A DNA stretch of 64,000 nucleotides from Candidatus Zhuqueibacterota bacterium (GCA_013202295.1 JABMRT010000118.1:16109-80108); one strand, 5' to 3'. Positions 422 through 25,952 are shown, numbered from the stretch's first letter. The notes: generated by a model from the sequence alone, not told the origin. Program-made: numbers and translations.

Positions 422-470
422 TTGCAATCCGGATCAGACAAACAGTTTGACCGCGATAGGAGGAAAAGAA

Positions 471-2498: not shown

Positions 2499-2522
2499 TT
2501 CTTTTAAGGCACGGATGAAATT

Positions 2523-3509: not shown

Positions 3510-3530
3510 CACACAGGGAGGATATAACCC

Positions 3531-5230: not shown

Positions 5231-5239
5231 TGAGATAAA

Positions 5240-5716: not shown

Positions 5717-5717
5717 A

Positions 5718-6725: not shown

Positions 6726-6861
6726 GTTTTTCTTCAAATTGTCTGGGGGGACAAACATGCCGAAGAATCAGCCGGCTACTTTCGTGTTTCGGATTGCAAT
6801 GTTCCGAAGCGATCCCTCCTTTATACAGATCGTCCTGATAAAAAAAATGATTTGAGATCGC

Positions 6862-7986
6862 ATGGCAAGAATTAATTTCAGCGATAATGTTGAGGCCAGA
6901 GGGCGAAATTTGCACCTACAGACCAACACGCTGGATGAAAATAATCATATGGTTTCCACTCTTTTCGATGGCGGTCGAGTTTTGGCCAAAGAAGATAAAG
7001 TGTATCAAGAAGATCTTGCAGATGACGCACTTCAGAACGAAGTGATGATTTTTCATGCTGATCGGAAGGAATCCATTGAAAGACTGTATCTGATCTCAGC
7101 CAGAGTGAAAACCATGCGGCATGCACAGAGCATGCATATGCTCGGATGTCTTTTCCTGAAATGGCATCTGATTGATGAGGCGATTAGTGAATTTGAATAT
7201 GCCCTGAATCAGGATGATCAATATGGCGATGCCTATCTAAATCTGGGGCGTGCATATATTCTGAGAGGCGGCTTTCAAGAGGCCATTGAAATCCTTCAAA
7301 AGGGAAGAAATATCGCAACCAATTATCCAGATATACAAGCGGAATTGGGATATGCATATTTATTAAACCATCAGCATAAAGAAGCGATTGATATGCTCGA
7401 AGCTGCTCTTAAGATTAATGCCTCTTATGCGGATGTACACTATCTACTCGCACTTGTTTTCTTTTATCGGTTTTTACATGAAGAATCCGGCCAAGACGAT
7501 AATATTGAGCATTTTAAAGACAGAACAATCGAACATTTAAATCGGGCCGTATCACTTTCCAAACGATACAGAATTAAAGCGGTTGGCGAGGGCGTCTTAT
7601 TTATTAAAAGGGGAGAATTTGAGGCGGGCTATCGGAAGCTGCTTGACACCCAAGAGAAGATAGGGCCAGAATTGGATAAGACGTTTCACTATGAATTTTA
7701 TTTAAACTTTCTCTATGGTCAGGATGGGCGGAACCACAAATATCTGGATCAGTACCGCGCAACATTGGAGCAGCTTCTCAGGGAACATCCTGATTATCCG
7801 GATTTGCATAATTATCTGGGCGTGACGTCACTCATTCAGAGCAGGGAACACATCAATCGTGCGATTCATGAGTTCAGAACCGCCAATCAGCTGAATCCGG
7901 AGTATCAGGAAGCTGCGCGGAATCTGAAATTAACGGAAAATGACGGCAAGGGATTTCTCCTGCTACTCAGGGCAGTGCTACGATAA
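6862..7986 (+). CDS. TPR repeat-containing protein
   Basis: Several 34-aa TPR-like units (e.g. 'AISEFEYALNQDDQYGDAYLNLGRAYILRGGFQEAIEILQKG', 'AIHEFRTANQLNPEYQEAARNL'). Confidence 0.6.
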   Translation: MARINFSDNVEARGRNLHLQTNTLDENNHMVSTLFDGGRVLAKEDKVYQEDLADDALQNEVMIFHADRKESIERLYLISARVKTMRHAQSMHMLGCLFLKWHLIDEAISEFEYALNQDDQYGDAYLNLGRAYILRGGFQEAIEILQKGRNIATNYPDIQAELGYAYLLNHQHKEAIDMLEAALKINASYADVHYLLALVFFYRFLHEESGQDDNIEHFKDRTIEHLNRAVSLSKRYRIKAVGEGVLFIKRGEFEAGYRKLLDTQEKIGPELDKTFHYEFYLNFLYGQDGRNHKYLDQYRATLEQLLREHPDYPDLHNYLGVTSLIQSREHINRAIHEFRTANQLNPEYQEAARNLKLTENDGKGFLLLLRAVLR

Positions 7987-8159
7987 GGGTGACCGGAAAT
8001 TGGTCAACATCCATTTTATTATGGAATAAGGGAATTACTAGCAAGCTGTTTTCATTGGAATTAAGTCTTTTTAGAAATCAGTGCTATTCTTTGGTATGCA
8101 GTTTGCTTAAATTAGAAATACTTGATATTTAACAATCAATAAAATCAGGGACACTTCAA

Positions 8160-11100
8160 ATGAGACGGGTCCATAAAAAGAAGAATCAGATGATGCAGAA
8201 TAAAACAAATTTCAGTTTATTGATATTACTCGCGATCGCAAGTCTGCTCCCAAGCACCTCTATTGCGCAGCTCACAGGTGTATCAGTGACCATGGGTGAT
8301 TCGACAGTCAATGCGAGCAGCTGGCATAAGATTGAATTTACGCATACGGACTCTATTCCCAAAGATGGTAAAATTTTAATTGTTTACCCTACAGGTTTTG
8401 ATTTAACTGAAATCTATACTGTCCAATCTGATATGATGGATGGTGCCTGGACAACAATAGTGATCGGCGACACAGTTTTTATCAATCGTAATGGCAATGG
8501 ATCCCAAGAACTACCCGGACGACCTGAAAGATTATATTTGTTAAATGTGGGTAATCACACACAATCCGGCACCAGCTTCACAGTCGATGTGGAAACAAGG
8601 TTTTATAATGACGCAGTAATTGATCAAGGAACCTCAAACGGATTCAGCCTTAATCCCGGGGAAATGGATCGGTTTGCTTTTTCAGGCATTCCGGCCAACG
8701 TTGAAGCGGGAGATCAATTTCCAATAACGATCACTGCACAAGATGAGTATGGGAATGATGCTACAGGTTTTACCTCCGATGCAACTCTTTCAGATAAAAC
8801 AGGTACGTTAAGTATTTCTGGAGGTGGCACTACTACAAGCTATTTCACCGCAGGCGTTTGGAGTGGAAACATTCAAATACTTCAAACAAATCTAAGCAAT
8901 TCAATTACAGCTACCTCGGGGAGCAAGACCAGCACATCCGGCTCTTTCGTGGTCGATCCAACAACCTTGGATTACTTCACATTCGGTGCAATCTCAAGCC
9001 CACAAACTGCGGATACACCGTTTGGTGTTAGCATTACGGCCTATGACAACCTTGGCAATATCAAGACGGATTACACAGGTAATACTGATTTGACCGACCA
9101 AACAGGAAACTTATCAATCACGCTCAACGAATTTGACAACAATACGACCGCTGCATTTTCAGGCGGCATCTGGAGCGGCAATGTTCAAGTGACTCAGACG
9201 TCAACTGATAATTTTATTACGGCTTCCGGTCCTGCGAGTGGCAATTCCGGGCAGTTCAATATCAATCCTGCGTCAGCAAGCACATTTACTTTTTCCAATA
9301 TCGTTGATCAGGAGGTCGGTGAGCCTTTCCTGATTACAATCACAGCACGCGATCTTTATAATAATGTAGCAACCAGTTTTGGATTAACCGCTACATTATC
9401 CGATGTGACCGGCACACTTCAGATCAGGGCCAATGGCAGTGGAACCACAACAAATAGTTTCTCATCCGGTGTGTGGACCGGGAACGTTGATGTCAATCTG
9501 ATTCATACTGCCGATCAGATTTCTGCGGTCAGTGGTGCTGTGACTGGCAGCTCAACTCAATTTCGAGTGGATCCAACCAGTTCAGTGGATCACTTTGATG
9601 TCACAATTGCCTCCATAGGCACTCCGAAAACCGCAGGCGTTCCGTTTTCCGTAACCATAGAAGCAATTGATGAATTTGGGAATACCGCCGATTATTCCGG
9701 CAATGTCACACTCTTTGACGAAACAGGGACCAATTCACCACAACAGGTTGCAATCAGCAATGGAACTTGGACGGGGAATGTTACGATAGAGCAAGTGCGA
9801 TCTAACAACTCTTTGACGGTTGCTGGTGCGGGTGAGGGTGGGGTGTCCGGCAACTTTGATGTTGTGGCGAACACAGTAGCCTCCTTCGGAATTAATCCGA
9901 TCACCAGCCCCCAACGGGCCGGAAGTTTTTCCATAAACATGACTGCGTATGACGTGTATGATAACATTGCCACAAGCTTCAATCAAACGGTGACACTGGA
10001 AGTTCTCGCATCCGCGACTATTGCCATTACGCCAACGACAAGCGGCGCGTTCAGCAATGGTCAGAGAACCCAGACGGTGCAGATTACCCAGGCCGCGCAG
10101 GATCTTCAAATCCGTATTGTGGATGCAGGGAGCCATGAGGGCACTTCCAACCTGTTCAATGTGATTCATCATGCCACACTCGATGAGTTCGTGATTGGTC
10201 CCATCGCGACCCAGGCAGCAGGGCTTCCTTTTACCCTCTCTTTAACTGCGGTAGATCAATACGGAAACACTTATACCAGTTTTGACGGCACAGACAATTG
10301 GGTATATATCAGCCATTCCGGTTCTGGCAGTATCGTTCCGGTCCAAAGTCAAACTTTTGATCAAGGCAAGTGGGTCGGGAATATTACGATCGATGAGGTT
10401 CAGACGGGCGATGTAATTACTGTCACACGCTATAGCGGCTTAGAAAACGGGCAATCTAACGCATTTAACGTGACGCCAGGCGTGGTAAGTTATTTTGAAT
10501 TTGATCCAATACCCGATCCCATTGTAGCGGGCGATACTTTCCAGATCTGGGTGCGCGCCTATGATGCACAGGGCAATCTCGTTACCGGAGCGGAAGGATC
10601 CTTCGTGATCAATCTGATTGACGAAACCGGATCGATTCTTGACGATACGGGCACAATCAACATAAGCCAGGTTTCACTGATTGGTGGAGTGGGTACTGAA
10701 ACAATTCAGATCCGGGAAAGCATTTACAATAACACACTCACTGCATCCGGGCAAGGTAAAAGCGGTATATCCAATGAATTCGATGTGAATCCCGCCGCGG
10801 TGAATCATTTCAATATTGGTGTGATTGGCAGCCCGCAATTCTCTACTCAAAGTTTTGCGATGACCATCACAGCCAAGGATCAGTTTGAGAACACGGTCGA
10901 TTATTATACAGAGTCTGTGTACCTGTCCGATTCAACCGGAACAATCCAGCCCACACAAAGCGGTACTTTTATTAATGGTGTGCGTACTGTTTCCGTTCAG
11001 ATCACAGAAGCGAGAAACGATGTCCGCATTTGGGCGTATCTTGGATCCGGGGAAAAGGGCGAATCCAATCTGTTTAATGTGTTCCCCGGTCCATTGGATC

Positions 11101-14100
11101 ATTTCACATTTAATGAAATTCCGGATCAGATTATCCGACATCCATTCTCTATTACAATTACTGCTTTTGACGTGAATAATAATATCAAGACAAATTTCAA
11201 TGAATCCGTCACTCTTTCAGATGAAACCGGGACGATTACACCTACAGTGAGTCCCAATTTTGTGAATGGTGTGATGACAGGCGGTGTCACACTATATACC
11301 GATACGACGGATAATCGAATCACAGCCACCTATAATAGTGTGTCTAATTCTTCCGAGCTCTTTGACGTGGTGCTCGATCCGGGTATTCAGGTGCTTAATT
11401 TTAAAGCGCTTTGGAAAGACACAACCACACAGATCAGTTCCATAACAACGAATCAAGACAGCCTCTGGTATTTAACCTGCCATGTGCGAAACATGAGTGG
11501 ATCCAACACCCGAATGGATAGTCTGCAATTGTCCGTTACAGTAAACAATCAACAGCGGAATGACTTCACTTATACTCTTCCCACGCAGTTCTGGGGGAAC
11601 GGTACAGAGAACCTGGGCGGCGGCGCATTGGATTCTCTGCTCATTCCGATCACGCATACGGGCAGCAGATCCGGCCCGGCGATTTTTCAGGTGACCGCCT
11701 TTTTGAAAAAACTTGATACGGGCGCTACTTTGTCCAATGATGCAGTTACCAATTTGTTGGTGCAAACCGACGGAGTTCTCTACGTCAATGAGATGCGAAT
11801 GAAGAATCCGGTTGTATCGAAAGCTGAAGTCACAAGGGGGCAAGATCAAGATTGGTCCATCTCCGTAGTGGTCAAAAATCAGGGACAAAGCCACATTCTG
11901 GTGGATTCCTCTACCAATGCCACATTTCTTAATTTCAGTATCGGGACGCCTGCCACCTGGATCATAGCAAGACCGCCCTTATGGAGCGGTGGCGACTGGA
12001 TTCTTGAAGGCGGAGAGACAGATACACTTAAATACATCATTGATGAAACGACGGATTTGAACTCCGGCTCCTGTTCTGTAGATGCTTATATTGAAGGCAC
12101 GGAAATCAATACTGGCAGGACACTGACAGAAAACACACTTGACGGGGGATCGGGTACCGTGCTCATTGAACAACCGGCCGCGCTGAGAATTCAATCCGTA
12201 ACGAACCTTGCACCCAATGCACCCTATGTGAACCGGAGTCAAGCTTTTACAATTCGAGTACAAGTTACTAATCCGGGCGGGGACGCGTCGCTCTCTTCCT
12301 CTTTAGCGATAAATCAACTCCATTCCTCTTTCCCTGCAACGAGTAATGTGGGATTACTTTCAGGAAGCCAATCCCAAACTGTTGATATTGCCGGCACAGC
12401 TGCTGCAGTAGAGGGTCTGGATGACACCTTTACAATTCGAGCCAATGGCACAGCAGAAAATACAAACGCGTCCATTAGCGATCAAAATCCAGTGGATGAT
12501 ACAGCGCAGGCGATTACTCAGATTCCAGCAACACTCGAAATTATTTCCGTGATTCCTTCCACGACCCAATTGCTGGGAGGACAAACAGATCCATGGAAAT
12601 TGAGGGTTGTTTTACGAAACTCCGGTCAGGCTATCATTGATCTGGATCCGCCCAAGGCAGACAGTTTGAGTTTCTGGGTGGAAGGACTCAGACAGGAAGA
12701 TTATAATGTCATTGCTCCAACCGGATTGTCGAAAAGCGGCAATCTTTCATTGTCAGGCGGAATTACTGATACGCTGACTTTTACAGTAAACACAACAGGC
12801 ACCTATGGCGGCACAGTAGGCATTCTTGCTTCAATTAGCGGTAAAGACAGAAATGATTTAAACATTGTCCGGGATACTGATAACACAAGCGTAACCGTGG
12901 AAACAGAAGAAGCTTTCCGCATCATCCAGACACAGATTGATGCGATTAATACGACAGATGCGAAGAATGGATATGTGAATACCGGCCAGGATTTCAATGT
13001 GCTGGTCATTGTAGAAAATGCCTTGGGCAATACAATTCGAAACATCGATATCCGACTAAACTCGGACGGCGATTCACAGATCGATGATACTACTGCTTTT
13101 ATCAGCTCATTGCCTCCGTCTAAGCGGGATTCGGTCTGGTTTGATGTTCAAGCATCCGGCATTGAGAATCTCAACGGTGAACTGTTTACATCATCTATTG
13201 CTTCCGCAAAGCGCGACAATCAAGTCGATGATGCTCCAATCGGAGCCGCACATGATTCCACAGCAACGATGATTATCCAAACCCGTGCCGAGTTGTCTCT
13301 TGAGCTTTCTTTGGATCCGGCTTCGGGTGTTGTGTCCGTCAACCAACCCTTCACAGTGCAGGCTCGATTGATAAAAACCGGGTCGAGCCAATTGAAAAAT
13401 GATGGCCGCGTGAAGGTTGTACCTCCTAGCGGGTATTTGCTCTTCTCGGATTCCGATACCGCATCTATTACACCGGCACAGCCCGTATCGTGGATCATTG
13501 AAGCACCCAGTGACACCTCGACCGATGATGAAATTCGTGTCAAACTGGAAAGCTATCCCGATGATAAGAATACAGATAACAATGCCTATGTGTCCAATAA
13601 TTCAACTTATATATCCATTTCTACAATACGAAGCCGGATGGATGCTGCGGTCACAATTTCGGATCCAGCCGGAGCAGCGGATGGCACGATTTCAAGCGGG
13701 CAGAATTTTACAGTAAAGGTAGCAGCCGGATTGTCTAATGTGACCGGGGCAAGGGCCAAGATCGATTTGCCCAGTGGCTATACCACACGAAACAATGTCA
13801 CACAAGTTCTCAGTCCGGATTCGGCCACATGGCTGGTGACAGCGCCAGCACTATCTCAATCTGAAAATGAGATTGAGGTAATCACATGGGGATATGATGA
13901 TCTCCAGCCCAATATAGAAATAGGAAGAGATACAACGCGACTTCCAATTCAAACTGTATTACGCGCCGATCTATCTCTTTCATTAGAAATCACCAGTCCT
14001 CCGGAAGCGGCCCAATATGGCACCGTCTCTCTGGGCCAGGAATTTACAGTACAATCACGCGTTGTAAATAACGGTGTGGCAACGACAGAAGGTGACATGC

Positions 14101-15146
14101 AAGTCACTCTACTCTCCTTACCGGATGGTTTTACAACCCATGACCCTCTAACTCAAACTTTGATATCCGGCGATGCGGACTGGACCATAAAAGCACCGAA
14201 CCAGATCAATCAGGCCATCGCAAGCATCGAGGCCCGAATTACTCAAATCCCGCAGGATGAAAACACGAATCAACAAGCTCATATTTCAAAAGATTACCAA
14301 TCTGTTTCACTGACTTTAGAAGGGGCTACTCTGGCAGTATCGGCACTGCCTCTACCCGAAGGAGCAAAGCAGGAATTGGTGCCGGGTCAGGAGGATGTGG
14401 TCTTCATGCGACTCCAGCTAAAGAATGACGGGCAGGAGGGATCATACGATATACAGGTTGAGCGTATTCATTTCTATTTAGAAGACAGAAACGGGAATCC
14501 GGTTTCTCCCGCATCTGCACTTTCACGGCTTGAAGTGGTTGATGATCAAAACGCGACCACATATGGCGGAATCACACAGATCCCATCCGCCAATCCCCTA
14601 ACCATTGAACTCAATGGATTGATTGTGACTGTCGAGCAGAAAGCTCAGGATGAAAATCCGACAATACTTATTCGGGGAAATATCTCCGGCTCAGAAACGA
14701 TTCCCTACTTTCTATTAAATCTACCTGGAACTGATGCCATTGAAGCGATTGAGTCCAACACCGGACGAATTGTTTCGGTGACCGATCCTACTGGTGAAGA
14801 CTGGGAGGACATGCGGTCCATGCCGATGAAGATTTTTGATCTGGTTCGCGAGCATCAACTTTGGAACAGCCCCAATCCGTTTGGAGAGTCAGGCCGGGAG
14901 ATCACATCAATCTATTTTTATATGCCAGAACAACAATCGGTTGAGTTCCGCATCTTCACATTGATGGGGAAGTTGGTAAAAACAATTCAAATCGATGAGG
15001 TGGATGTTATTGCAAACCAGATTAATCTCTGGACATGGGATGGTACCAATGACAAAGGCATTAGGGTTCTGAATGGTGTATACCATTTATTTATGCAAAT
15101 GAGTGACGGACAGATTTTAAAACATAAAATCGCTTATGTGAAATGA
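8160..15146 (+). CDS. Giant (2328 aa) cell-surface repeat adhesin with T9SS C-terminal sorting domain; ~95-aa Ig-like tandem repeats N-terminally and CARDB/DUF11-like repeats C-terminally
   Basis: Signal peptide (LLILLAIASLLPSTSIAQ). About 10 repeats of the pattern 'F.F..I.SPQ.AG.PF..TITA.D.YGN....F.....L.D.TGT......F..G.W.GNV.I........ITA.....G.S..F.V.P'. Later repeats look like 'A.LRIQSV.NL......V...Q.FTIRV.V.N.G'. The C-terminal ~90 aa 'NPFGE...ITSIYFYMPEQQSVEFRIFTLMGKLVKTIQID...GVYHLFMQ..DGQILKHKIAYVK' matches the T9SS CTD. Confidence 0.8.
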   Translation: MRRVHKKKNQMMQNKTNFSLLILLAIASLLPSTSIAQLTGVSVTMGDSTVNASSWHKIEFTHTDSIPKDGKILIVYPTGFDLTEIYTVQSDMMDGAWTTIVIGDTVFINRNGNGSQELPGRPERLYLLNVGNHTQSGTSFTVDVETRFYNDAVIDQGTSNGFSLNPGEMDRFAFSGIPANVEAGDQFPITITAQDEYGNDATGFTSDATLSDKTGTLSISGGGTTTSYFTAGVWSGNIQILQTNLSNSITATSGSKTSTSGSFVVDPTTLDYFTFGAISSPQTADTPFGVSITAYDNLGNIKTDYTGNTDLTDQTGNLSITLNEFDNNTTAAFSGGIWSGNVQVTQTSTDNFITASGPASGNSGQFNINPASASTFTFSNIVDQEVGEPFLITITARDLYNNVATSFGLTATLSDVTGTLQIRANGSGTTTNSFSSGVWTGNVDVNLIHTADQISAVSGAVTGSSTQFRVDPTSSVDHFDVTIASIGTPKTAGVPFSVTIEAIDEFGNTADYSGNVTLFDETGTNSPQQVAISNGTWTGNVTIEQVRSNNSLTVAGAGEGGVSGNFDVVANTVASFGINPITSPQRAGSFSINMTAYDVYDNIATSFNQTVTLEVLASATIAITPTTSGAFSNGQRTQTVQITQAAQDLQIRIVDAGSHEGTSNLFNVIHHATLDEFVIGPIATQAAGLPFTLSLTAVDQYGNTYTSFDGTDNWVYISHSGSGSIVPVQSQTFDQGKWVGNITIDEVQTGDVITVTRYSGLENGQSNAFNVTPGVVSYFEFDPIPDPIVAGDTFQIWVRAYDAQGNLVTGAEGSFVINLIDETGSILDDTGTINISQVSLIGGVGTETIQIRESIYNNTLTASGQGKSGISNEFDVNPAAVNHFNIGVIGSPQFSTQSFAMTITAKDQFENTVDYYTESVYLSDSTGTIQPTQSGTFINGVRTVSVQITEARNDVRIWAYLGSGEKGESNLFNVFPGPLDHFTFNEIPDQIIRHPFSITITAFDVNNNIKTNFNESVTLSDETGTITPTVSPNFVNGVMTGGVTLYTDTTDNRITATYNSVSNSSELFDVVLDPGIQVLNFKALWKDTTTQISSITTNQDSLWYLTCHVRNMSGSNTRMDSLQLSVTVNNQQRNDFTYTLPTQFWGNGTENLGGGALDSLLIPITHTGSRSGPAIFQVTAFLKKLDTGATLSNDAVTNLLVQTDGVLYVNEMRMKNPVVSKAEVTRGQDQDWSISVVVKNQGQSHILVDSSTNATFLNFSIGTPATWIIARPPLWSGGDWILEGGETDTLKYIIDETTDLNSGSCSVDAYIEGTEINTGRTLTENTLDGGSGTVLIEQPAALRIQSVTNLAPNAPYVNRSQAFTIRVQVTNPGGDASLSSSLAINQLHSSFPATSNVGLLSGSQSQTVDIAGTAAAVEGLDDTFTIRANGTAENTNASISDQNPVDDTAQAITQIPATLEIISVIPSTTQLLGGQTDPWKLRVVLRNSGQAIIDLDPPKADSLSFWVEGLRQEDYNVIAPTGLSKSGNLSLSGGITDTLTFTVNTTGTYGGTVGILASISGKDRNDLNIVRDTDNTSVTVETEEAFRIIQTQIDAINTTDAKNGYVNTGQDFNVLVIVENALGNTIRNIDIRLNSDGDSQIDDTTAFISSLPPSKRDSVWFDVQASGIENLNGELFTSSIASAKRDNQVDDAPIGAAHDSTATMIIQTRAELSLELSLDPASGVVSVNQPFTVQARLIKTGSSQLKNDGRVKVVPPSGYLLFSDSDTASITPAQPVSWIIEAPSDTSTDDEIRVKLESYPDDKNTDNNAYVSNNSTYISISTIRSRMDAAVTISDPAGAADGTISSGQNFTVKVAAGLSNVTGARAKIDLPSGYTTRNNVTQVLSPDSATWLVTAPALSQSENEIEVITWGYDDLQPNIEIGRDTTRLPIQTVLRADLSLSLEITSPPEAAQYGTVSLGQEFTVQSRVVNNGVATTEGDMQVTLLSLPDGFTTHDPLTQTLISGDADWTIKAPNQINQAIASIEARITQIPQDENTNQQAHISKDYQSVSLTLEGATLAVSALPLPEGAKQELVPGQEDVVFMRLQLKNDGQEGSYDIQVERIHFYLEDRNGNPVSPASALSRLEVVDDQNATTYGGITQIPSANPLTIELNGLIVTVEQKAQDENPTILIRGNISGSETIPYFLLNLPGTDAIEAIESNTGRIVSVTDPTGEDWEDMRSMPMKIFDLVREHQLWNSPNPFGESGREITSIYFYMPEQQSVEFRIFTLMGKLVKTIQIDEVDVIANQINLWTWDGTNDKGIRVLNGVYHLFMQMSDGQILKHKIAYVK
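8655..11355 (+). repeat. In-frame tandem coding repeats (~285 bp / ~95 aa, ~10 copies, diverged) within the giant adhesin gene
   Basis: The motifs 'SPQ.AG.PF..TI.A.D', 'L.D.TGT', 'G.W.GNV.I' and 'F.V.P' recur with ~95-aa periodicity. Confidence 0.6.
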
Positions 15147-15223
15147 CAGAAATGGAAATGAGATATAATTCCCCGAAGAGAATTCTGGATGGGTATCCAG
15201 CGTTTGATTCGGGAATCATTTAA

Positions 15224-17161
15224 ATGGATTTGATTCAGGTTATGCCAATGAAAAAGATTACAATGGTTCTATTCGCAGGGATAGTCCTCACCTCGTTTAT
15301 CTCGCTGCAGGCACAGGATGGTGAAGCCGGTATAGAGAGCCTCTTTTCGATCGGTTTTGGAGCCAGAGGCATGGCTCTTGGAAATGCTTCTGTGGCTTTC
15401 CCCGAAGACCCCACGGCGTTCGCGTGGAATCCTGCGGGTATGGTCAAGGTTGAGCGCAAAGAATTCCTTTTCAGCCATACCACACTCTTTGAGGATGTTC
15501 AATATAATTTTATCGGATATGTACATCCTACCTTAAATGCCGGTACATTCGGATTCGGCATTTCACGGGCGGGTACCGGAGGAATCCGGGAATTTGATAA
15601 TATAAATGGAGTTTCCATCGAAGGCGATGAATTCGGATACTGGTGGGGCAAACTTTCCATTGCTTACGCAGTCCATCTATTTAGCGGGATCTCTTTCGGC
15701 GCGAACTTTGAGGCGAACCGGCAAGTGCTTTTGGATTATTCGACCAATGGGTTTGGACTCGATGCCGGATTACATTATGCGCCCTCAAACACCAGCATGC
15801 TTCACGGCTTTAATTTCGGGTATGTTGCGGTAAATGCGTACAGTCCCAGATTAAAGTTAGGGACCGAATCAGAAGCCATCCCTCCTATACAGAAACTGGG
15901 TATTGCGCGTACGATCAATTTGCGTGACGGACTGGACCGATGGCTCTTTCTCTTTGATTATGAATGGGCGCAAAATAAAAAATCAAAATATCATTTTGGT
16001 ACCGAGTACAGCCTTGATCGAAGTGTTTTCTTTCGAACGGGTTTTGATAATGGTGAGATCACATTTGGAGGCGGGCTTCGCATACACATGTTCCAGTTAG
16101 ATTACGCGAATAGCCGTATTGGAGATGCCGAATATTTTCCTCGAAGTCATCGCTTTTCTCTCATTTTTCATATTGGTCAGACTTTGGCTGAAAAGCTTGA
16201 AGCCATTCAAGATCAACGAGAGCAGGAGATTCGTGACCGGTTTCAGGAAAGGCTCAGCGAAGAACGCAAAGTGCGTATTGAAGAAAGCCTAAAAACGGGA
16301 CAGGAATACTTTGATAAAGGAGATTACTTTAACGCACGACTCGAATTTAGCAGGGTTTTGCGTGAAGATAGAAATAATGTGGCTGCCAAACGCAGGCTCG
16401 ACATGACGACCGAGAAGGAACAGGAATTCCAGAAACAGCGTGAGGATTCTTTGTTGAGTGCGGCCAGAGAACGCGACCAGCAGCAGCGTGATCTCGATTT
16501 CGTGAATCAGCGCTTCCAGGATGGAAATGAGGCCATGCAGCGGGGCGAGTTTCAGGCTGCAATCAAAAAATGGGAAGAAGCACTTGAAGTAGATCCAGAT
16601 CATCCCACCATCCGTTCGTACATTAGCCAAGCCCGTAATCAATTGGAAAGTGAAATCAATCGTGCGATTGCGAGTTCGCGCGCATACATGCGTCAAGAGA
16701 ATTTGACTGAAGCGAGACGCCTTCTTGAGCGTGCTAAAACACAGGCTGAGGGCAATCCGGAGCTGACTCGAAAGGTTACCGGCGAAATGAGGAATTTTGA
16801 TCGCATGGTTGACTTCATCTCGAATTATCAGGCGGGATTTAAACGATATAACGAGGGTCAATTTGCTGAGGCCGTTCCCTATTTTGAGAAAGCACTTGAA
16901 ACTCAGCCGGAAAACGAGCGGGTGCGCCAGCTTTATCAAAACGCACGGGCACGATCCAATACAGAAGAAAGCAATCAGCCTCCAGAAGTCAAGAGGGATG
17001 TTAGCGATAAGATTAAAGAAGGGATCGGCTTTTATAGAGATGGCCGATATGAAGAAGCATTGAGAGTTTGGGAGGAGGCGCTGGAACTGGATCCACATAA
17101 CGTTAGACTGTTGGAAGCTATCGACGGCGCCAGAGAAAAACTTGAAACGTTTCAACAATAA
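15224..17161 (+). CDS. Outer-membrane beta-barrel (FadL/PorV/PorP-SprF-like N-terminal motif) fused to a C-terminal coiled-coil/TPR domain; candidate T9SS-associated partner of the upstream adhesin
   Basis: Signal peptide, then 'GFGARGMALGNASVAFPEDPTAFAWNPAGM' (the AR.GM.G...A..PD......NPA pattern of PorV/FadL-type barrels). Alternating amphipathic strands run to ~aa 300, ending in 'FSLIFHIGQ'. The C-terminal ~340 aa are helical with TPR-like units ('WEEALEVDPDHPTIRSYISQAR', 'FEKALETQPENERVRQLYQNAR', 'WEEALELDPHNVRLLEAIDGAR'). Its position immediately downstream of a T9SS cargo gene mirrors sprB-sprF-type pairs. Confidence 0.5.
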   Translation: MDLIQVMPMKKITMVLFAGIVLTSFISLQAQDGEAGIESLFSIGFGARGMALGNASVAFPEDPTAFAWNPAGMVKVERKEFLFSHTTLFEDVQYNFIGYVHPTLNAGTFGFGISRAGTGGIREFDNINGVSIEGDEFGYWWGKLSIAYAVHLFSGISFGANFEANRQVLLDYSTNGFGLDAGLHYAPSNTSMLHGFNFGYVAVNAYSPRLKLGTESEAIPPIQKLGIARTINLRDGLDRWLFLFDYEWAQNKKSKYHFGTEYSLDRSVFFRTGFDNGEITFGGGLRIHMFQLDYANSRIGDAEYFPRSHRFSLIFHIGQTLAEKLEAIQDQREQEIRDRFQERLSEERKVRIEESLKTGQEYFDKGDYFNARLEFSRVLREDRNNVAAKRRLDMTTEKEQEFQKQREDSLLSAARERDQQQRDLDFVNQRFQDGNEAMQRGEFQAAIKKWEEALEVDPDHPTIRSYISQARNQLESEINRAIASSRAYMRQENLTEARRLLERAKTQAEGNPELTRKVTGEMRNFDRMVDFISNYQAGFKRYNEGQFAEAVPYFEKALETQPENERVRQLYQNARARSNTEESNQPPEVKRDVSDKIKEGIGFYRDGRYEEALRVWEEALELDPHNVRLLEAIDGAREKLETFQQ

Positions 17162-17184
17162 TTATTCACTCTGCGGAGCGGCAC

Positions 17185-20100
17185 ATGTTTAAGAAGGTGA
17201 TCAAGGAGCAATGGGAATTTCCTGCAGAAATTGATTATCTCGGCGATATGCGGGATACGGTGATGGAGTTCGGCCGACAATACGGTGTCTCCGAGCAAGT
17301 GATAAATGCGTTCAAACTTGCAATTGATGAAGCCGGTACAAATATCATCCGGCACGCATATCGAGATTGGGATGGCAAAATCACTCTTCGAGTGATCATT
17401 CGCGATAAATCAGTCACAATATCCTTAATCGATCAGGGCCATCATTTTGATCTGAGAAAAGTGCAGGATCCGGATCTGCAGCGATACGTGGATATCGGAA
17501 AAAAGGGTGGCCTGGGGATCTTTATTATTCGCCGTGTGATCGATAAAATTGATTATAGAAAAACGTCAGAGGGCAATGAGCTCCGCCTCACAAAAAACCG
17601 ACGGGGCAATAAAGCTGGCAGTTTGATGAGTGCCGATTTGCCCTTTACCATGAAAACCCGATTCTCTCTGATTGCATCAGCGATTTTAACGCTATTTGTA
17701 TTGGCAGCGATTGTCTGGAATTATTTTGTGCAGGAAGATAAAATCCTTAATGCGAATCTGGCATCCGGACAGAATATGACTCGCTCTCTTGTGCATCAAT
17801 GTGCCGATCCTCTTGCGAAAGGATACCTTTGGGAACTCAGTGCGATTGTTTCTGAAAACCACAGAGAATGGTATCCCAAGATCAGCGAAATCATGGTGCT
17901 TGATACAGCGAATATTGTACAGGGTCTTGTGAATCTGGATTCTTTGATGAGTCAATATGTATTCCCTGTGAACGCCAGGCAAATCCGTAAGGGCATTTAT
18001 ATTATACAAACCTGGTCTGGCAAGACAGTTTATGATATTATTGAACCGGCTGTGACCCAGGTGCAGGGTCGGGAGATTCAGCTCGGATCGATTCATCTTA
18101 TGCTTGACAAAGCGGTAATTGATTCAGAAGTGGTTGATGCGAGGAAGCGCATTATTTTTAACGGGGCAATCATTCTTATTCTTGGCTGCGGCGGTATTTT
18201 CGGTTTGGTATATCTGACTTTGAGCCCCTTTAAAAAGCTTTCTAAATGGGTTCGGGATCTTGGACATGGTGAAGTGCATGATGAAATGGAATTCAATAGA
18301 TCGGATGAGATCGGCGAGATCGCCCAGGCGTTCAATGAAATCACCGAGAAATTCCGCAAATCTCAAGAAAATGTAGCTGAGCAGGAACGGCTGCAAAAAG
18401 AGATGCAAGTCGCCCAGGAAATACAACAAACTCTTCTCCCGGATTCTTTTCCCGATGTCGAGGGGTATGAATTGGCCTCCTATTATGAAGCGGCCAAAGA
18501 GGTGGGCGGCGATTATTTTGATTTTTTTAAGGTTGATCGTGACACACTCGGCATCGCTGTCGCCGATGTGTCGGGTAAAGGTGTTCCCGGATCACTCGTA
18601 ATGACCATGATTCGCACTGCACTGCGCACGGAAGCGCGCGGCAATAAAAACGCTGCGGATGTTCTTTCCAAAGTCAATGATTTTGTGATCAATGATATGA
18701 AACGGGGTATGTTTGTTACTGTTTTCTATATAATCCTTGATTCAAAACGTCGTATTATCAATTATGCCAGTGCCGGACACAATCCCATGATTCTATACAG
18801 GGGACAATCTGAAAAGAGCTATTATTTAAATCCCAGAGGATTTCCCATCGGGATTAATCTTCCGGACAAGGCGCTATTTCGTAAATCCATTGAATCTGAT
18901 ACTTTGCAGCTTAGACCGGATGATGTGCTGATTGCGTATACGGACGGTATCACGGAGGCAATGGATAAGAGCCGGAATCGATTTGGTGATGAGCGATTTC
19001 TCTCTGTATTAAGGCGGAGTGGCAACCTACAAGCCGAGCCGCTGGTAAAACGTATTCAGGAAGAAATTCAGCGTTTTACAGGCGGTTACGCGCAGAGTGA
19101 TGATATTACACTGGTTGCGATTCGTGAAAAACTAGCTGCAGAAGATGTGCTTTTTAATCATCGAAACGAGTTGTTTCGCATGGTAAAAAAAGAAGGCATG
19201 AGCGTTAAAGAAGCCTGTGAAAAAGCAGGAGTTTCGACCTCTACGTATTATAAATATAATAAACTTTATAAGAAAGAGGGTAAAGCCGGATTAAAGGAAC
19301 GTGTTTCCAAGACTGAAATTGAAGAGAAGCATATTGCCATTGAGGACAAGGCGAAAATCTATGATGTGATTAAGCAAACTCCCGAATATGGTCCGAAGCG
19401 CATTCGTGAAGAGTTGAACACAGAAAAGTACGGCTTTCTGCAGGTTGATGAAAACCGCATTTATGATGAGTTGGTCCGCAGTCGGTTAAACACCAAGGAT
19501 CTGCGTATGGCTTTTGTGGAGCGGGGTGGTCGGGGCAAACGGATGAAACCACCAGGAACACCATTTCTCACATTGGATGGCAAGGTAATTATTGAACCGA
19601 CCGTTCACCGCATACCCGTCCCGCCACCGAGACAGACAATTGTACAGGCGCCGGTTGAAGTTGAAAAAGCGGCCGAAGCACCGGATACAGTTTCAGAAAA
19701 CAAAGAATGGAACACGCTTCAGGTTGTTGATATGACCGAACAAAACGACGGTTTTGGTGAACACGAGGGCGTCTCCATAGCCGAGGAAGTCGAGATGGGT
19801 GCTGAAGAAATTGAGGAACAGATTCAGCATGATCTGGTCTCACATGGTGCTGATCAGCAGGCTGAGGTCCAACATGAAGAGGAACGGATCTCTCAAGATC
19901 TATCAGAAATTCCTGAAAGCAAAGAAGAAAACTCCGAAGAGATTTTTTCAGATCTAGATGAGATAGAATCACTCCAAAATCAGGATGCGAAGGATATAGA
20001 AGAACCGGATTTCGATGAATTTATATCTTCAGATGACGGTCTGGCTCATGCCCTTTTGACGGGATCCGACGAGAATTTTGATTTCATGGAAAAAGAATCC

Positions 20101-20781
20101 ATTGCCGAAAAACGGTCTGAAGAATTTATGAATATCGATGAGATTCTTGAGACAGACAAACCCCTATTGGTGAATGAGCATATTGATCATCGGGTTGAAG
20201 AAAATATATCTTCCTCTGCGGTGGATGATCTCATGAGTGAGGTTACGGGTGAATTGGATTTGATCTCTGCGGGTACAGTGCCGGTTGAGGAAGAGGCAGG
20301 TTTTGTTGAAATGATGGAAGGACTTGGTTTTGATCGCAGGGATGTGTTCCAGGGGGGCAAACGATCTGAGGCGGGCAAGAAAGCTGCGGAATATTATCAG
20401 CGTATGCGCTTTCATGAATCAGGTCAATGGTTTTACCGTGAGGGTCTCTACGCACGGGCTATTGAGGAATTCAGGAAAGCAATTGAATGCGATCCGAAAT
20501 TCGGAGATGCATATCACAGCATTGGTGACGCACATTTTCGGCTTGGCCAGCTTGAAAAGGCCAAAAATTCTTATATTAAGGCCAAAGAGTTGAATCCTGA
20601 AAACATTGATGTGCTTGAAAATTTGGGTGTAATTTACGCCAATCAGGGCGATTACAGACGGTCGGTTTGGCAATGGGGTGAAGTCATCAAACGGGATCCC
20701 TCCAGACTGGATATTATTGAACGCATCAAACGCATGCAGCGTGTCATTCGGCAGCGTGCTGTGTATCATAAAAGAAGTTGA
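17185..20781 (+). CDS. Multidomain membrane partner-switching regulator fusing RsbW-like anti-sigma Ser kinase, TM sensor, HAMP, PP2C/SpoIIE phosphatase, IS3-like transposase HTH modules, an acidic disordered linker and TPR repeats
   Basis: aa 1-145: HATPase_c_2 ('AIDEAGTNIIRHAY', 'GGLGIFIIRRVIDKIDY'). TM1 ~aa 160-180, a ~150-aa extracytoplasmic segment, TM2 ~aa 330-350. HAMP ('LSPFKKLSKWVRDLGHGEV...IGEIAQAFNEITEKF'). PP2C/SpoIIE ('GGDYFDFF', 'IAVADVSGKGVPGSLVMTMIRTALR', 'AYTDGITEA', 'QSDDITLVAI'). aa ~660-790: 'MVKKEGMSVKEACEKAGVSTSTYYKYNKLYKKEGKAGL' (IS3 OrfA-like HTH) and 'IYDVIKQTPEYGPKRIREELNTEKYGFLQVDENRIYDELVRSRL' (IS3 OrfB HTH_21-like). aa ~830-1010 are D/E-rich and low-complexity. 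The C-terminus has TPRs ('AIEEFRKAIECDPKFGDAYHSIGDAHFRLGQLEKAKNSYIKAKELNPEN'). Confidence 0.8.
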   Translation: MFKKVIKEQWEFPAEIDYLGDMRDTVMEFGRQYGVSEQVINAFKLAIDEAGTNIIRHAYRDWDGKITLRVIIRDKSVTISLIDQGHHFDLRKVQDPDLQRYVDIGKKGGLGIFIIRRVIDKIDYRKTSEGNELRLTKNRRGNKAGSLMSADLPFTMKTRFSLIASAILTLFVLAAIVWNYFVQEDKILNANLASGQNMTRSLVHQCADPLAKGYLWELSAIVSENHREWYPKISEIMVLDTANIVQGLVNLDSLMSQYVFPVNARQIRKGIYIIQTWSGKTVYDIIEPAVTQVQGREIQLGSIHLMLDKAVIDSEVVDARKRIIFNGAIILILGCGGIFGLVYLTLSPFKKLSKWVRDLGHGEVHDEMEFNRSDEIGEIAQAFNEITEKFRKSQENVAEQERLQKEMQVAQEIQQTLLPDSFPDVEGYELASYYEAAKEVGGDYFDFFKVDRDTLGIAVADVSGKGVPGSLVMTMIRTALRTEARGNKNAADVLSKVNDFVINDMKRGMFVTVFYIILDSKRRIINYASAGHNPMILYRGQSEKSYYLNPRGFPIGINLPDKALFRKSIESDTLQLRPDDVLIAYTDGITEAMDKSRNRFGDERFLSVLRRSGNLQAEPLVKRIQEEIQRFTGGYAQSDDITLVAIREKLAAEDVLFNHRNELFRMVKKEGMSVKEACEKAGVSTSTYYKYNKLYKKEGKAGLKERVSKTEIEEKHIAIEDKAKIYDVIKQTPEYGPKRIREELNTEKYGFLQVDENRIYDELVRSRLNTKDLRMAFVERGGRGKRMKPPGTPFLTLDGKVIIEPTVHRIPVPPPRQTIVQAPVEVEKAAEAPDTVSENKEWNTLQVVDMTEQNDGFGEHEGVSIAEEVEMGAEEIEEQIQHDLVSHGADQQAEVQHEEERISQDLSEIPESKEENSEEIFSDLDEIESLQNQDAKDIEEPDFDEFISSDDGLAHALLTGSDENFDFMEKESIAEKRSEEFMNIDEILETDKPLLVNEHIDHRVEENISSSAVDDLMSEVTGELDLISAGTVPVEEEAGFVEMMEGLGFDRRDVFQGGKRSEAGKKAAEYYQRMRFHESGQWFYREGLYARAIEEFRKAIECDPKFGDAYHSIGDAHFRLGQLEKAKNSYIKAKELNPENIDVLENLGVIYANQGDYRRSVWQWGEVIKRDPSRLDIIERIKRMQRVIRQRAVYHKRS

Positions 20782-20806
20782 CAATCTTTCAAATTTCCAT
20801 TAACTT
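20778..20806 (+). promoter_or_regulatory. Possible sigma70-like promoter for the STAS gene (-35 TTGACA 20778-20783, 17-nt spacer, -10 TAACTT 20801-20806)
   Basis: Hexamers read directly from the sequence. The -35 overlaps the upstream stop codon. Consensus usage in this lineage is unknown. Confidence 0.25.
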
Positions 20807-20853
20807 GACAAGTAACTCATTTAATTTGAATGGATTTCCGATAGGAGAATAAC

Positions 20854-21507
20854 ATGGAAGGCATACAGGTGTCCGTGGAACGTGCTGGATATCAGGGTGA
20901 CATTTCGATCATTAAGGTCGGTGGCTATATTGATACAACCACTTCTTCGGAGCTTGAACGTGCTTTGGAGGGATTGCTAAAATCCGGCATTTACAGAGTC
21001 ATTATTGATCTGCAGAATGTGGATTACATCTCCAGTGCAGGTTGGGGTATATTTATTAGTGAGATAAAAGGCATTCGTGAGAGGGATGGAGATTTAAAAC
21101 TCGCCAACATGATTCCGGATGTGTATGAAGTGTTTGAACTTCTCGAGTTTCACTATATCCTGAAAGCGTATGATTCTATTGAGGCAGCAATCCAGGATTT
21201 CAATCAGGAAGAGAATCCCATGATTGAAGAAGAAACGGTTGTTCAGGAAGATGCTGAACCGGAGGTTCCCAGCACCCAAAAAGAAGAACCATTGTCTTCC
21301 GAACCGATTCCTGACAGTCTTGAAGACATGATACGCGAAATTGCTTTGGAGAATCCGGAATTGGGTCATGGTCAAATCGCTAAAGCACTTAATACAGATA
21401 AGTATGGCTTTACGCGTGTGGGACAACTCACTGTTTGGAAAATATTACGGAAGATGCATCTCGGGTCAAAAAAAGCCAGGGAGGAGATTGCCAGAAATCG
21501 AAACTAA
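20854..21507 (+). CDS. STAS-domain anti-sigma-factor antagonist (RsbV/SpoIIAA-like) with C-terminal acidic linker and HTH-like extension homologous to a segment of the upstream regulator
   Basis: STAS core 'ISIIKVGGYIDTTTSSELERALEGLLKSGIYRVIIDLQNVDYISSAGWGIFISEI'; the position of the phosphorylatable Ser is consistent with 'DYISSAG'. The C-terminus 'MIREIALENPELGHGQIAKALNTDKYGFTRVGQLTVWKILRKMHL' parallels 'IKQTPEYGPKRIREELNTEKYGFLQVDENRIYDELVRSRL' in the 1198-aa protein. Confidence 0.8.
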   Translation: MEGIQVSVERAGYQGDISIIKVGGYIDTTTSSELERALEGLLKSGIYRVIIDLQNVDYISSAGWGIFISEIKGIRERDGDLKLANMIPDVYEVFELLEFHYILKAYDSIEAAIQDFNQEENPMIEEETVVQEDAEPEVPSTQKEEPLSSEPIPDSLEDMIREIALENPELGHGQIAKALNTDKYGFTRVGQLTVWKILRKMHLGSKKAREEIARNRN

Positions 21508-21528
21508 GCGGGAAACAGTTTTTATATT

Positions 21529-23457: not shown

Positions 23458-25755
<2,298 letters not shown>

Positions 25756-25784
25756 ATCCGGGATCCGTTGTGCTCAGAGACTAG

Positions 25785-25952
25785 ATGATGCTGCGCACCA
25801 TGGGCTGGACAGAAGCTGCCGATCTTGTAGTCCAAGCCATCGAAAAGACGATCCGTCAAAAGCGGGTTACGTATGACCTTGAACGTCAGATGGAAGGTGC
25901 GACCAAGCTGAGTTGTTCAGAGTTCAGTCAAGCCATTATTGAAAACATGTAA
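25785..25952 (+). pseudogene. icd: 3'-terminal remnant (56 codons) of a dimeric-type isocitrate dehydrogenase (icd) gene
   Basis: It translates to '[55 protein letters not shown]'. This is near-identical in pattern to the E. coli Icd C-terminus (..[55 protein letters not shown]). An in-frame TAG lies immediately upstream, and there is no upstream icd body. Confidence 0.6.

Follow-up and report, generated by a model that had tools for sequence, protein, structure and literature searches.

Organisation of the locus

The window, i.e. the whole 64-kb stretch of DNA that was analysed, contains a gene cluster with the conserved order giant surface protein, PorV-like barrel/TPR protein, sensor and STAS protein, together with a further TPR protein gene:

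6862..7986, plus strand: TPR protein of 374 aa, a recurrent member of the cluster
8160..15146, plus strand: giant secreted repeat protein of 2328 aa with a FlgD_ig-like C-terminal domain
15224..17161, plus strand: PorV/PorQ-family outer-membrane beta-barrel protein of 645 aa with a TPR tail of about 320 aa
17185..20781, plus strand: sensor ORF of 1198 aa, a fusion of kinase, transmembrane receptor, phosphatase, HTH and TPR modules
20854..21507, plus strand: STAS protein of 217 aa, starting 72 nt after the sensor stop codon

The sensor and STAS ORFs were confirmed at the place given in a preliminary description of this DNA; the gap between them, reported there as 73 bp, is one nucleotide shorter. 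The STAS protein is 100% identical to the NCBI entry 'STAS domain-containing protein [candidate division KSB1 bacterium]'. The 645-aa barrel protein scored 98.8 bits with NCBIfam PorV_fam (cut-off 90), its TPRs were detected by Pfam, and 18 of the 19 distinct fused sensors are immediately preceded by a PorV-like gene. The FlgD_ig-like domain of the giant protein is of the kind found on T9SS cargo in the window, and most related loci retain the C-terminal part of this protein ahead of the PorV-like gene. Full-length homologs of the 374-aa TPR protein occur in the same clusters of loci L004, L005, L009 and L086. Scans of positions 6500-23600 yielded 36 promoters and 24 terminators, near the expectation from shuffled sequence (28.9±6.7 and 15.9±4.1, respectively), and are thus uninformative on operon structure.

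Domain architecture of the sensor

The sensor, a predicted inner-membrane protein of an uncultivated KSB1-type bacterium, is composed of an RsbW-type Ser-kinase, TM1, a periplasmic Cache-fold domain, TM2, HAMP, a coiled-coil linker and an RsbU/SpoIIE-type PP2C, followed by a transposase-like bipartite HTH, an acidic and presumably disordered linker and three TPRs:

17218..17595, plus strand: RsbW/SpoIIAB-type GHKL Ser-kinase, aa 12-137, cytoplasmic (Pfam HATPase_c_2, E 1e-26)
17662..17718, plus strand: TM1, aa 160-178 (Kyte-Doolittle 2.46 over 19 residues)
17719..18165, plus strand: periplasmic single PDC/Cache-fold sensor domain, aa 179-327 (fold predicted)
18166..18222, plus strand: TM2, aa 328-346 (Kyte-Doolittle 2.35)
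18211..18348, plus strand: HAMP, aa 343-388 (Pfam HAMP, 32.6 bits, cut-off 25)
18349..18474, plus strand: alpha-helical linker from HAMP to phosphatase, aa 389-430, near-invariant in the family
18475..19134, plus strand: RsbU/SpoIIE-type PPM (PP2C) Ser phosphatase, aa 431-650 (Pfam SpoIIE)
19150..19599, plus strand: bipartite HTH module, aa 656-805, resembling the N-terminus of IS481/IS3 transposases
19600..20364, plus strand: acidic linker, aa 806-1060, of variable sequence (28% D+E, net charge -56)
20413..20709, plus strand: three C-terminal TPRs, aa 1077-1175, cytoplasmic (Pfam TPR_11, TPR_2, TPR_1)

All four motifs quoted in the preliminary description were located in this ORF, and searches with Pfam and NCBIfam profiles recovered the kinase, HAMP, PP2C/SpoIIE, HTH, TPR and STAS domains that it had named. 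The two TM helices were found as well, and the extracytoplasmic segment, given as about 150 aa, comprises 149 aa; the acidic segment had been underestimated at about 180 aa and extends over about 255 aa.

A conserved Ser of STAS partners is phosphorylated by RsbW-type kinases, and RsbU/SpoIIE-type PPMs remove the phosphate. The HATPase_c_2 match of the kinase domain covers the whole profile length (93.8 bits, cut-off 27.4), and RsbW (PDB 6m36) was matched among solved structures with E 3e-11. Its top NCBIfam match (aa 9-142) is anti-sigma B factor RsbW with 70 bits against an equivalog cut-off of 145, and the SpoIIAB equivalog reaches 38 against 135. Because both equivalog cut-offs are missed, the kinase domain appears to be an orthologue of neither protein. 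The phosphatase matches Pfam SpoIIE at aa 452-647 with E 6e-50 (170.3 bits, cut-off 25), and its Asp motifs (GGDxxD, DVSGxG, TDG, DDxT) align with the structures of RssB (3es2), Rv1364c (3ke6) and SiaA (6k4e). Conservation of the catalytic residues had been proposed as a check in the preliminary description; E49 and N53 of the kinase N-box, D83, G85 and G105-G111 of its G-boxes and the metal-binding D443, D461, D587, D639 and D640 of the PP2C domain are all invariant in 15 diverse homologs. Judged by these motifs, both domains are intact and neither seems degenerate.

The predicted topology places the kinase and phosphatase domains in the cytoplasm. Lying between two TM helices, the predicted PDC fold assigns the extracytoplasmic domain to the Cache/PDC group, supported by Pfam sCache_3_2 matches in homologs; structurally, this domain comes closest to the citrate sensor CitA. 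Coiled-coil linkers are the route by which sensor domains control PPM dimers. In the family studied here, near-invariant linker residues are R391, Q394, A398-L403, K405, E406, Q408, A410, I413, Q414 and L417-P419, and the linker aligns with the corresponding region of RssB (3eq2/3f7a). The role and mechanism of linkers between sensor domains and PPM phosphatases have been described (PMC12143880).

Downstream of the phosphatase, HTH_28 scored above its cut-off at aa 665-709, with weaker Pfam matches to HTH_29, HTH_Tnp_1 and HTH_23. As this region is similar to the IS481/IS3 transposase N-terminus, the ORF might be suspected to be a misassembly or a chimera generated by an IS481-type insertion, or to carry one dead catalytic domain. 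We regard such an artefact or decayed gene as extremely improbable and rejected it: more than 100 uninterrupted full-length homologs from independent assemblies share the architecture, an identical protein is present on an independent JGI contig, and the catalytic motifs are intact. Furthermore, no rve/DDE transposase catalytic core was found in the sensor by Pfam search, the transposase profile was matched just at positions 1-109 of 284 (59 bits, cut-off 224), and the HTH region is kept in place with 25 invariant columns in 20 sequences. The module is thus best described as a putative recruited domain of the DNA-binding type and not as a transposase. The acidic linker cannot be aligned among homologs, yet it is acidic in all of them (net charge -30 to -110). 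TPR-family Pfam matches span aa 1080-1175 and consensus-TPR structures in the PDB were matched as well; of the 92 fused representatives described below, 29 retain TPRs.

The STAS partner

The following features were assigned to the downstream gene:

20893..21189, plus strand: STAS (anti-sigma-factor antagonist) domain, aa 14-112 (Pfam STAS, E 1.6e-17)
21034-21036, plus strand: codon of Ser61, the phospho-acceptor predicted by alignment
21304..21501, plus strand: basic HTH_21-like tail, aa 151-216

The STAS domain scored 63.6 bits with Pfam (cut-off 22.6) and 59.1 with TIGR00377, anti-sigma-factor antagonist (cut-off 53.45). In the alignment, Ser61 shares its column with the phosphorylated Ser of RsbV, SpoIIAA and TM1442, and the motif VDYISSAGWGIFIS containing Ser61 is invariant in 121/121 STAS homologs. 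An acidic linker (aa 116-150) leads to the C-terminal tail, in which aa 156-206 gave a sub-threshold match to HTH_21 (PF13276; E 3e-4, 21.4 bits, cut-off 28.1); a precomputed PF13276 match exists for about 10 of 120 listed STAS homologs. The tail is paralogous to aa 724-774 of the sensor (34% identity over 50 aa, E 8e-9) and is matched by an HMM of the second sensor HTH (sensor-HTH2) with E 2e-10. Across the family, the tail carries a mean net charge of +5.2 and the linker one of -10.4. The HTH-like tail on a STAS protein hints that STAS switches may have a new type of output. Strict co-occurrence of the sensor HTH and the STAS tail was suggested by the first 80 loci and ruled out by L086, where the tail HMM detects a tail on the STAS protein and the sensor is devoid of the HTH module. 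It follows that the modules do not necessarily act together, and docking of the STAS tail on the sensor HTH was dropped as a firm claim.

Of the 19 distinct fused sensors, 16 come with a STAS gene or carry STAS as a fused domain; inspection of the locus neighbourhoods found no adjacent STAS gene for those of L002 (Calditrichota), L085 and L089. Where the preliminary description had reckoned with a dead or missing domain, a split ORF or lack of linkage to a STAS gene as evidence against its reading, we found the opposite in each case. Five cluster representatives carry STAS domains on the same polypeptide as the sensor, and the Latescibacterota versions (L004, L005) carry three STAS domains on the sensor, which provides Rosetta-stone support for the STAS protein as the partner of the sensor.

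Distribution and gene neighbourhood of the fused sensors

The fusion of kinase, receptor and phosphatase was present in 92 of the 150 best cluster representatives (50% identity), originating from KSB1, Calditrichota, Latescibacterota, Ignavibacteria and others. The architecture is not rare and is widespread in poorly studied phyla. In L026, L033 and L043, which belong to other lineages and share the same conserved cluster, PP2C, kinase and STAS protein are encoded by three separate genes; the window sensor can therefore be regarded as a fusion of a conventional trio. A search of one literature library for the combination of HATPase_c_2, HAMP and SpoIIE revealed nothing relevant, and neither did searches of one library for KSB1 partner switching or for type IX secretion with an anti-sigma factor antagonist.

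The absence of an adjacent sigma factor gene, stated in the preliminary description, holds for the entire window, in which Pfam searches and large-ORF annotation detected no such gene; likewise, no sigma-factor Pfam families were detected among the called genes of six annotated related loci (among L082-L089). A GGDEF gene is located in or directly after the module in five Ignavibacteria-type relatives (L008, L012, L016, L085 and L086), and no GGDEF protein was found among the large ORFs of the window or in KSB1 loci.

Linking the module functionally to the downstream genes for aconitase and isocitrate dehydrogenase is tempting, because CitA is the best match of the Cache domain and Chlamydia RsbU is reportedly linked to the TCA cycle. 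We did not adopt it. Aconitase follows the STAS gene in the closest clade only (L011, L018), in the KSB1 loci L082 and L083 unrelated genes come next, and no TCA genes were seen at L086-L088. Near L084 and L089, TCA genes recur.

Comparison with known partner-switching systems

Textbook accounts of partner switching usually describe a circuit of three proteins centred on a sigma factor. The Bacillus systems RsbU/RsbV/RsbW and SpoIIE/SpoIIAA/SpoIIAB use the same three domain families and the same phospho-serine chemistry as the proteins of the window, but they consist of three separate proteins with an adjacent sigma gene, whereas here a membrane receptor joins two of the three in one chain and there is no linked sigma gene. 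The preliminary description had pointed to separate polypeptides for the opposing kinase and phosphatase of these systems. As a general premise this does not hold, as the principle of a single-chain kinase/phosphatase partner switch is already published for SypE, HsbR/CrsR and Rv1364c.

In SypE of V. fischeri, an N-terminal Ser kinase, a REC domain and a C-terminal PP2C are combined; its target is SypA, a STAS protein, and the output lies downstream of transcription (PMC3610818). SypE has been termed a 'dual serine kinase/phosphatase' (PMC8256260). Compared by published description, it resembles the window sensor in the order of N-terminal RsbW-like kinase, central regulatory module and C-terminal PP2C. 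Its kinase of about 140 aa depends on the essential Asn52, the counterpart of which is N53 here. SypE acts both ways on a conserved Ser of a STAS protein from its own locus, and the window STAS protein is likewise encoded at the same locus; the SypE output involves no known sigma factor and concerns a cell-surface/biofilm structure. In contrast, SypE is soluble and switched through REC, whereas the centre of the window sensor is formed by TM1, Cache, TM2 and HAMP, and no Response_reg (REC) domain was found in it with Pfam. SypE is also without HTH, acidic linker and TPRs, and SypA without an HTH-like tail, all of which are present in the window proteins. By analogy, the window sensor seems to work like SypE without being a member of the SypE family.

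HsbR of P. aeruginosa and CrsR of Shewanella are REC-PP2C-kinase proteins which bind RpoS although rpoS is not adjacent (PMC6482189). Like the window sensor, they combine a kinase/anti-sigma domain with a PP2C to control a STAS protein (HsbA and CrsA, respectively), and HsbA has the non-sigma partners FlgM and HsbD, a diguanylate cyclase, which parallels the GGDEF genes beside the module in relatives. They differ in being soluble, in sequestering RpoS and in their C-terminal kinase, which is N-terminal in the REC-less window sensor. Rv1364c of M. tuberculosis unites PAS, PP2C, kinase and STAS in one chain (PMC12143880; PDB 3ke6), analogous to the Latescibacterota members L004 and L005, and its PP2C aligns with that of the window sensor with E 2e-13; unlike the window sensor, it is soluble, is equipped with a PAS sensor and carries the kinase after the phosphatase. 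Chlamydia trachomatis uses RsbU, RsbV1/V2 and RsbW (PDB 6mab; PMC11619594) with a separate RsbW, a double Cache and no HTH/TPR extension.

Aa 311-647 of the window sensor match the SiaA model (NCBIfam NF038263) with E 5e-22 and 78.3 bits against a cut-off of 700. The SiaABC switch protein reportedly regulates a diguanylate cyclase and biofilm formation; SiaC is said to be Thr-phosphorylated and to belong to a different family, with no canonical STAS. In the SiaA/SiaB/SiaC/SiaD system of P. aeruginosa, a TM-HAMP-PP2C protein and an opposing kinase control this small switch protein (PDB 6k4e), but the kinase SiaB is separate from SiaA, whereas the window kinase is fused.

Proposed mechanism and output

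The sensor is probably a dimeric inner-membrane receptor which sets the Ser61 phosphorylation of the STAS protein encoded downstream. We infer, as for all statements on the output, that both catalytic domains act on this STAS protein and that a signal biases their balance. The periplasmic Cache-fold domain would sense a ligand or an envelope partner, and the signal would pass through TM2, HAMP and the conserved helical linker to the RsbU-type phosphatase, opposed by the RsbW-type kinase, which is possibly constitutive and would be tethered at the cytoplasmic end of TM1. The resulting shift of the kinase/phosphatase balance would resemble the effect of REC phosphorylation in SypE, with the unphosphorylated STAS protein as the presumed active form engaging a downstream target. 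The fused bifunctional precedents SypE and HsbR/CrsR lend functional support to this mechanism. From the preliminary description, the bifunctional, signal-biased switch is thus retained on the basis of intact domains and a STAS partner, but not its novelty: with SypE, HsbR/CrsR and Rv1364c as precedents, a bifunctional STAS-acting enzyme with a non-sigma output is already established.

An output other than a sigma factor is more likely. Alternatively, the system may be a classical partner switch with an unlinked sigma factor, in which the RsbW-like domain holds the sigma factor at the membrane until the dephosphorylated STAS protein displaces it, modelled on CrsA displacement with CrsR and RpoS, and in which HTH and TPRs are accessory. 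RsbW is indeed the best NCBIfam match and its structure was matched, and the fused HsbR and CrsR bind a sigma factor encoded elsewhere, the present DNA covering 64 kb of the genome. On the other hand, the RsbW score lies well under the equivalog cut-off, neither the window nor the annotated related loci contain a sigma gene, in relatives the module includes a GGDEF gene instead, and SypE/SypA, the closest architectural analogue, acts downstream of transcription. We therefore consider this alternative rather unlikely.

The GGDEF genes suggest another output, namely that the STAS protein controls a diguanylate cyclase which is encoded next to it in the Ignavibacteria-type relatives and unlinked here. 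HsbA-HsbD (PMC6482189) and SiaC-SiaD are precedents, and in L085 polysaccharide-export genes follow the module. As the KSB1 loci and the large ORFs of the window are devoid of GGDEF and the clade of the window gained HTH, acidic-linker and TPR extensions instead, a second-messenger output is quite unlikely for the present system.

For the proposed receptor acting on Ser61, the output probably relates to the co-conserved envelope cluster with its giant surface protein and PorV-like barrel/TPR protein, and may proceed via the basic HTH_21-like modules of both proteins or via the sensor TPRs. The same genes allow a further reading, which we judge unlikely: the Cache domain would receive signals from the giant surface protein and from the PorV-like protein through its periplasmic TPR tail, and the STAS tail, which the acidic linker or phosphorylation would mask, would bind DNA or the sensor HTH and thereby regulate the cluster. 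Speculative and improbable is its extension to all four conserved genes as one trans-envelope device of FCB-group bacteria that reads the state of a giant surface structure, with the STAS protein as a sigma-independent phospho-switch transcription factor and the acidic linkers as DNA-mimicking autoinhibitors.

New findings on the receptor-controlled switch proposed here are a predicted Cache/HAMP receptor in place of the REC domain of SypE, a putative basic HTH_21-like STAS tail paralogous to part of the sensor HTH module, and the embedding of the module in a conserved envelope gene cluster, with a GGDEF neighbour in Ignavibacteria-type relatives. The current understanding of partner switching is not overturned by this sensor family, which represents a compact membrane-embedded partner switch without a linked sigma gene, tied to giant surface proteins and PorV-like proteins. 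If biochemistry holds, it would extend the SypE principle from response-regulator input to direct transmembrane sensing and would provide a candidate regulator for a conserved, wholly uncharacterised envelope gene cluster.

Domain organisation of the sensor and its STAS protein

Both open reading frames lie exactly where the preliminary description had placed them, and each sensor domain named there is backed by a Pfam match.

17185..20781, + strand: sensor gene, ORF of 1198 aa
sensor aa 12-137: HATPase_c_2 (Pfam, E 1e-26)
sensor aa 343-388: HAMP (Pfam)
sensor aa 452-647: SpoIIE (Pfam, E 6e-50)
sensor aa 665-709: transposase-type HTH, several models (Pfam)
sensor aa 1080-1175: TPRs (Pfam)
20854..21507, + strand: STAS gene, ORF of 217 aa
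STAS protein aa 14-112: STAS domain (Pfam, E 1.6e-17)

Comparison of the sensor with NCBIfam models revealed likeness to RsbW at aa 9-142, to SiaA at aa 311-647 and, at aa 659-770, to the N-terminal third only of IS481 transposases, and a hydropathy scan located two transmembrane segments (aa 160-178 and 328-346). The acidic segment that had been described is present, but it is longer than was stated, covering aa 806-1060 (window 19600-20364) with 28% D+E and a net charge of -56. The ORF is not an artefact, because an independent JGI contig holds a protein identical to the sensor and more than 100 full-length homologs are uninterrupted.

The STAS gene follows the sensor gene after a gap of 72 nt. 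Its product exceeds the cut-off of the NCBIfam anti-sigma-factor-antagonist model TIGR00377 and shares 100% identity with an NCBI entry under the name candidate division KSB1 bacterium. A sub-threshold HTH_21 match (Pfam) was found at aa 156-206 of this protein, and direct comparison revealed that its C-terminal tail is paralogous to HTH2, the second sub-domain of the bipartite HTH module of the sensor (34% identity, 50 aa, E 8e-9); a sensor-HTH2 profile likewise matched the tail (E 2e-10). The HTH-like modules of both proteins are basic (about +4 to +9) and adjoin acidic linkers, namely the acidic segment of the sensor and window 21199-21303 (net -12) in the STAS protein. These two linkers are unalignable, and it is their charge pattern, not their sequence, that is kept family-wide. 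Such acidic linkers beside basic HTH-like modules could represent DNA-mimicking autoinhibition. An apparent rule that tailed STAS proteins occur only with HTH-bearing sensors is broken by one related locus (L086), in which a tailed STAS protein accompanies a sensor without HTH module.

Catalytic residues and proposed mechanism

An alignment of 15 homologs with identities down to 42% revealed unchanged residues in the N-box (E49, N53) and G-boxes (D83, G85, G105-G111) of the kinase as well as unchanged PP2C aspartates D443, D461, D587, D639 and D640. In every alignment column, the aspartate motifs agree with those of RssB, Rv1364c and SiaA, PPM phosphatases of solved structure. Ser61 of the STAS protein fell in the alignment column of the serine that is phosphorylated in RsbV, SpoIIAA and TM1442, and the motif VDYISSAGWGIFIS was the same in all homologs (121/121). 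Computation demonstrates what the parts are, that they are intact, how they are placed relative to the membrane and that their genes are linked. The kinase and phosphatase reactions are established at the level of the families, and we infer that this STAS protein is the substrate of both catalytic domains, whose balance is shifted by the signal.

In the best-supported model, the sensor would be a dimeric Cache/HAMP receptor in which a nearly invariant linker passes a periplasmic signal on to the PP2C domain. The N-terminal kinase would supply the opposing reaction on Ser61, and the signal would set the phosphorylation state of the STAS protein.

The premise of the preliminary description, that kinase and phosphatase are always separate polypeptides, is contradicted by SypE, HsbR/CrsR and Rv1364c. 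In SypE of Vibrio fischeri, a REC domain separates an HPK-like Ser kinase at the N-terminus, for which Asn52 is essential, from a PP2C domain at the C-terminus; SypE both adds phosphate to and removes it from Ser56 of SypA, a STAS protein, and takes effect downstream of syp transcription (PMC3610818). A review termed it a 'dual serine kinase/phosphatase' (PMC8256260). HsbR and CrsR are REC-PP2C-kinase proteins with the substrates HsbA and CrsA; among the partners of these systems are RpoS, FlgM and HsbD, a diguanylate cyclase (PMC6482189). Rv1364c unites sensor, PP2C, kinase and STAS domains in one fusion (PMC12143880; PDB 3ke6), and control of PPM dimers by sensor domains, HAMP among them, via a coiled-coil linker was proposed as a general mechanism (PMC12143880). 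The earlier reading is borne out in part: a bifunctional enzyme is likely, but its principle is not new. Whereas REC phosphorylation sets the STAS state in SypE, a periplasmic signal is proposed to take that role here.

Distribution and architecture of the family

An exhaustive search with sensor aa 1-660 against 1.84 billion cluster representatives was performed and the best 150 matches were classified. The collinear kinase-TM-HAMP-PP2C core was found in 92 of these 150 representatives. This core was followed by an HTH in 35 of the 92, by an HTH and TPRs in 29, by STAS domains with or without HTH in five, and by nothing in 22 and in one more that gave no match to the TM/HAMP query, fragments being among these. 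At the level of genome loci, fused members, in which kinase and PP2C share one chain, carry the MAG labels Calditrichota, KSB1, Latescibacterota, Omnitrophota, Eisenbacteria, Ignavibacteria and FCPU426. The database names of family proteins are generic ('SpoIIE family protein phosphatase', 'RsbU / anti-sigma regulatory factor').

Two Latescibacterota-type MAGs encode sensors of 1420-1468 aa whose HTH module is followed by three STAS domains in tandem (L004 5956-10359, L005 5962-10221). As the STAS domains sit on the sensor, kinase, phosphatase and substrate domains are combined in one membrane protein; two more STAS genes, free-standing and without tail, lie about 2 kb downstream.

A conserved envelope gene cluster

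The gene order giant secreted protein, PorV/PorQ-family outer-membrane barrel, sensor and STAS is conserved. Of the 19 distinct fused sensors having downstream sequence, 18 have a PorV-like gene directly upstream and 16 are accompanied by an adjacent STAS gene or carry a fused STAS domain, both being absent at L002, L085 and L089. The last of these loci (5227-11988) encodes an orphan family member of 2253 aa, whose linker and TPR part are very long; it lies outside the conserved cluster with neither a PorV-like gene upstream nor a STAS gene downstream. The PorV-like barrel exceeds the NCBIfam PorV_fam cut-off and has a TPR tail of ~320 aa, the giant secreted repeat protein ends in a FlgD_ig-like domain, and a TPR protein of about 374 aa recurs at variable positions. 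The cluster extends over window 6862-21507 and was also observed in L002-L018, L026, L033, L043 and L082-L088. This giant-protein/PorV-like/sensor/STAS cluster of FCB-group phyla is apparently undescribed. Its unfused version, with PP2C, kinase and STAS as separate genes, occurs in L026, L033 and L043; these three-gene loci show the sensor to be a fusion of the conventional trio within an older cluster.

In the window, the STAS gene is followed by genes for aconitase and monomeric IDH (21529-25952), and a 55-aa Iso_dh-type fragment was called at about 25785-25952. At KSB1 loci the cluster ends with the STAS gene and unrelated genes lie beyond; aconitase and IDH are therefore probably not members of the system. 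TCA-cycle genes recur beside family members in differing arrangements (window, L011, L018, L084, L089), among them Iso_dh at L084 and citrate synthase with Iso_dh on the opposite strand at L089, which may reflect synteny by descent. The best structural match of the sensor's Cache domain (aa 179-327), which evolves fast, is the citrate sensor CitA.

Elsewhere in the window, a PilM_2-like gene (2523-3509) lies between two large ORFs of 683 and 363 aa without Pfam match; together (447-4622) they may form a divergent assembly module of pilus type. In a 2737-aa protein (42901-51114), PD40 beta-propeller repeats and many TPRs are joined to a CHAT (caspase-like protease) domain at the C-terminus; the genes for an AsmA-family protein (39119-42343) and for a DUF1318 protein lie upstream. 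Three successive secreted proteins (52464-59456), a GH18 chitinase-like enzyme, an 887-aa protein without other Pfam domain and a GH113-like enzyme, carry T9SS-type C-terminal sorting domains (Por_Secre_tail and/or FlgD_ig). Evidently, the organism uses type IX secretion.

Possible output of the proposed partner switch

No sigma factor gene was found within the 64-kb window or among the genes called in L082-L089. In five Ignavibacteria-type loci, a gene for a GGDEF diguanylate cyclase lies within the module or immediately behind it:

L008 10292-12025: GGDEF gene
L012 8881-10512: GGDEF gene
L016 11126-12535: GGDEF gene
L085 3999-5654: GGDEF gene
L086 10269-12080: GGDEF gene

At L085 a Wza-like polysaccharide export gene comes after the GGDEF gene. 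For these lineages, c-di-GMP or exopolysaccharide output is suggested. An output other than a sigma factor is somewhat more likely in general, because no gene-annotated locus has a linked sigma gene, relatives have GGDEF neighbours, SypE/SypA as the closest analogue has a non-sigma output, and sensor and STAS protein both possess HTH-like modules. Output through an unlinked sigma factor, encoded beyond the 64 kb seen, is somewhat less likely.

Novel features of the system

In the library searched, we found no paper on the present architecture, an HTH-tailed STAS protein or the envelope cluster, and a review of STAS proteins mentions neither helix-turn-helix nor DNA binding (PMC8256260). New features of the sensor are the transmembrane Cache/HAMP input and the extension by a transposase-type HTH, an acidic linker and TPRs; at the level of the system they are the STAS protein with its HTH-like tail and the conserved association with the giant-protein/PorV-like envelope cluster. 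The fusion itself would not surprise the specialist; the tailed STAS protein and the envelope cluster are probably worth an experiment.
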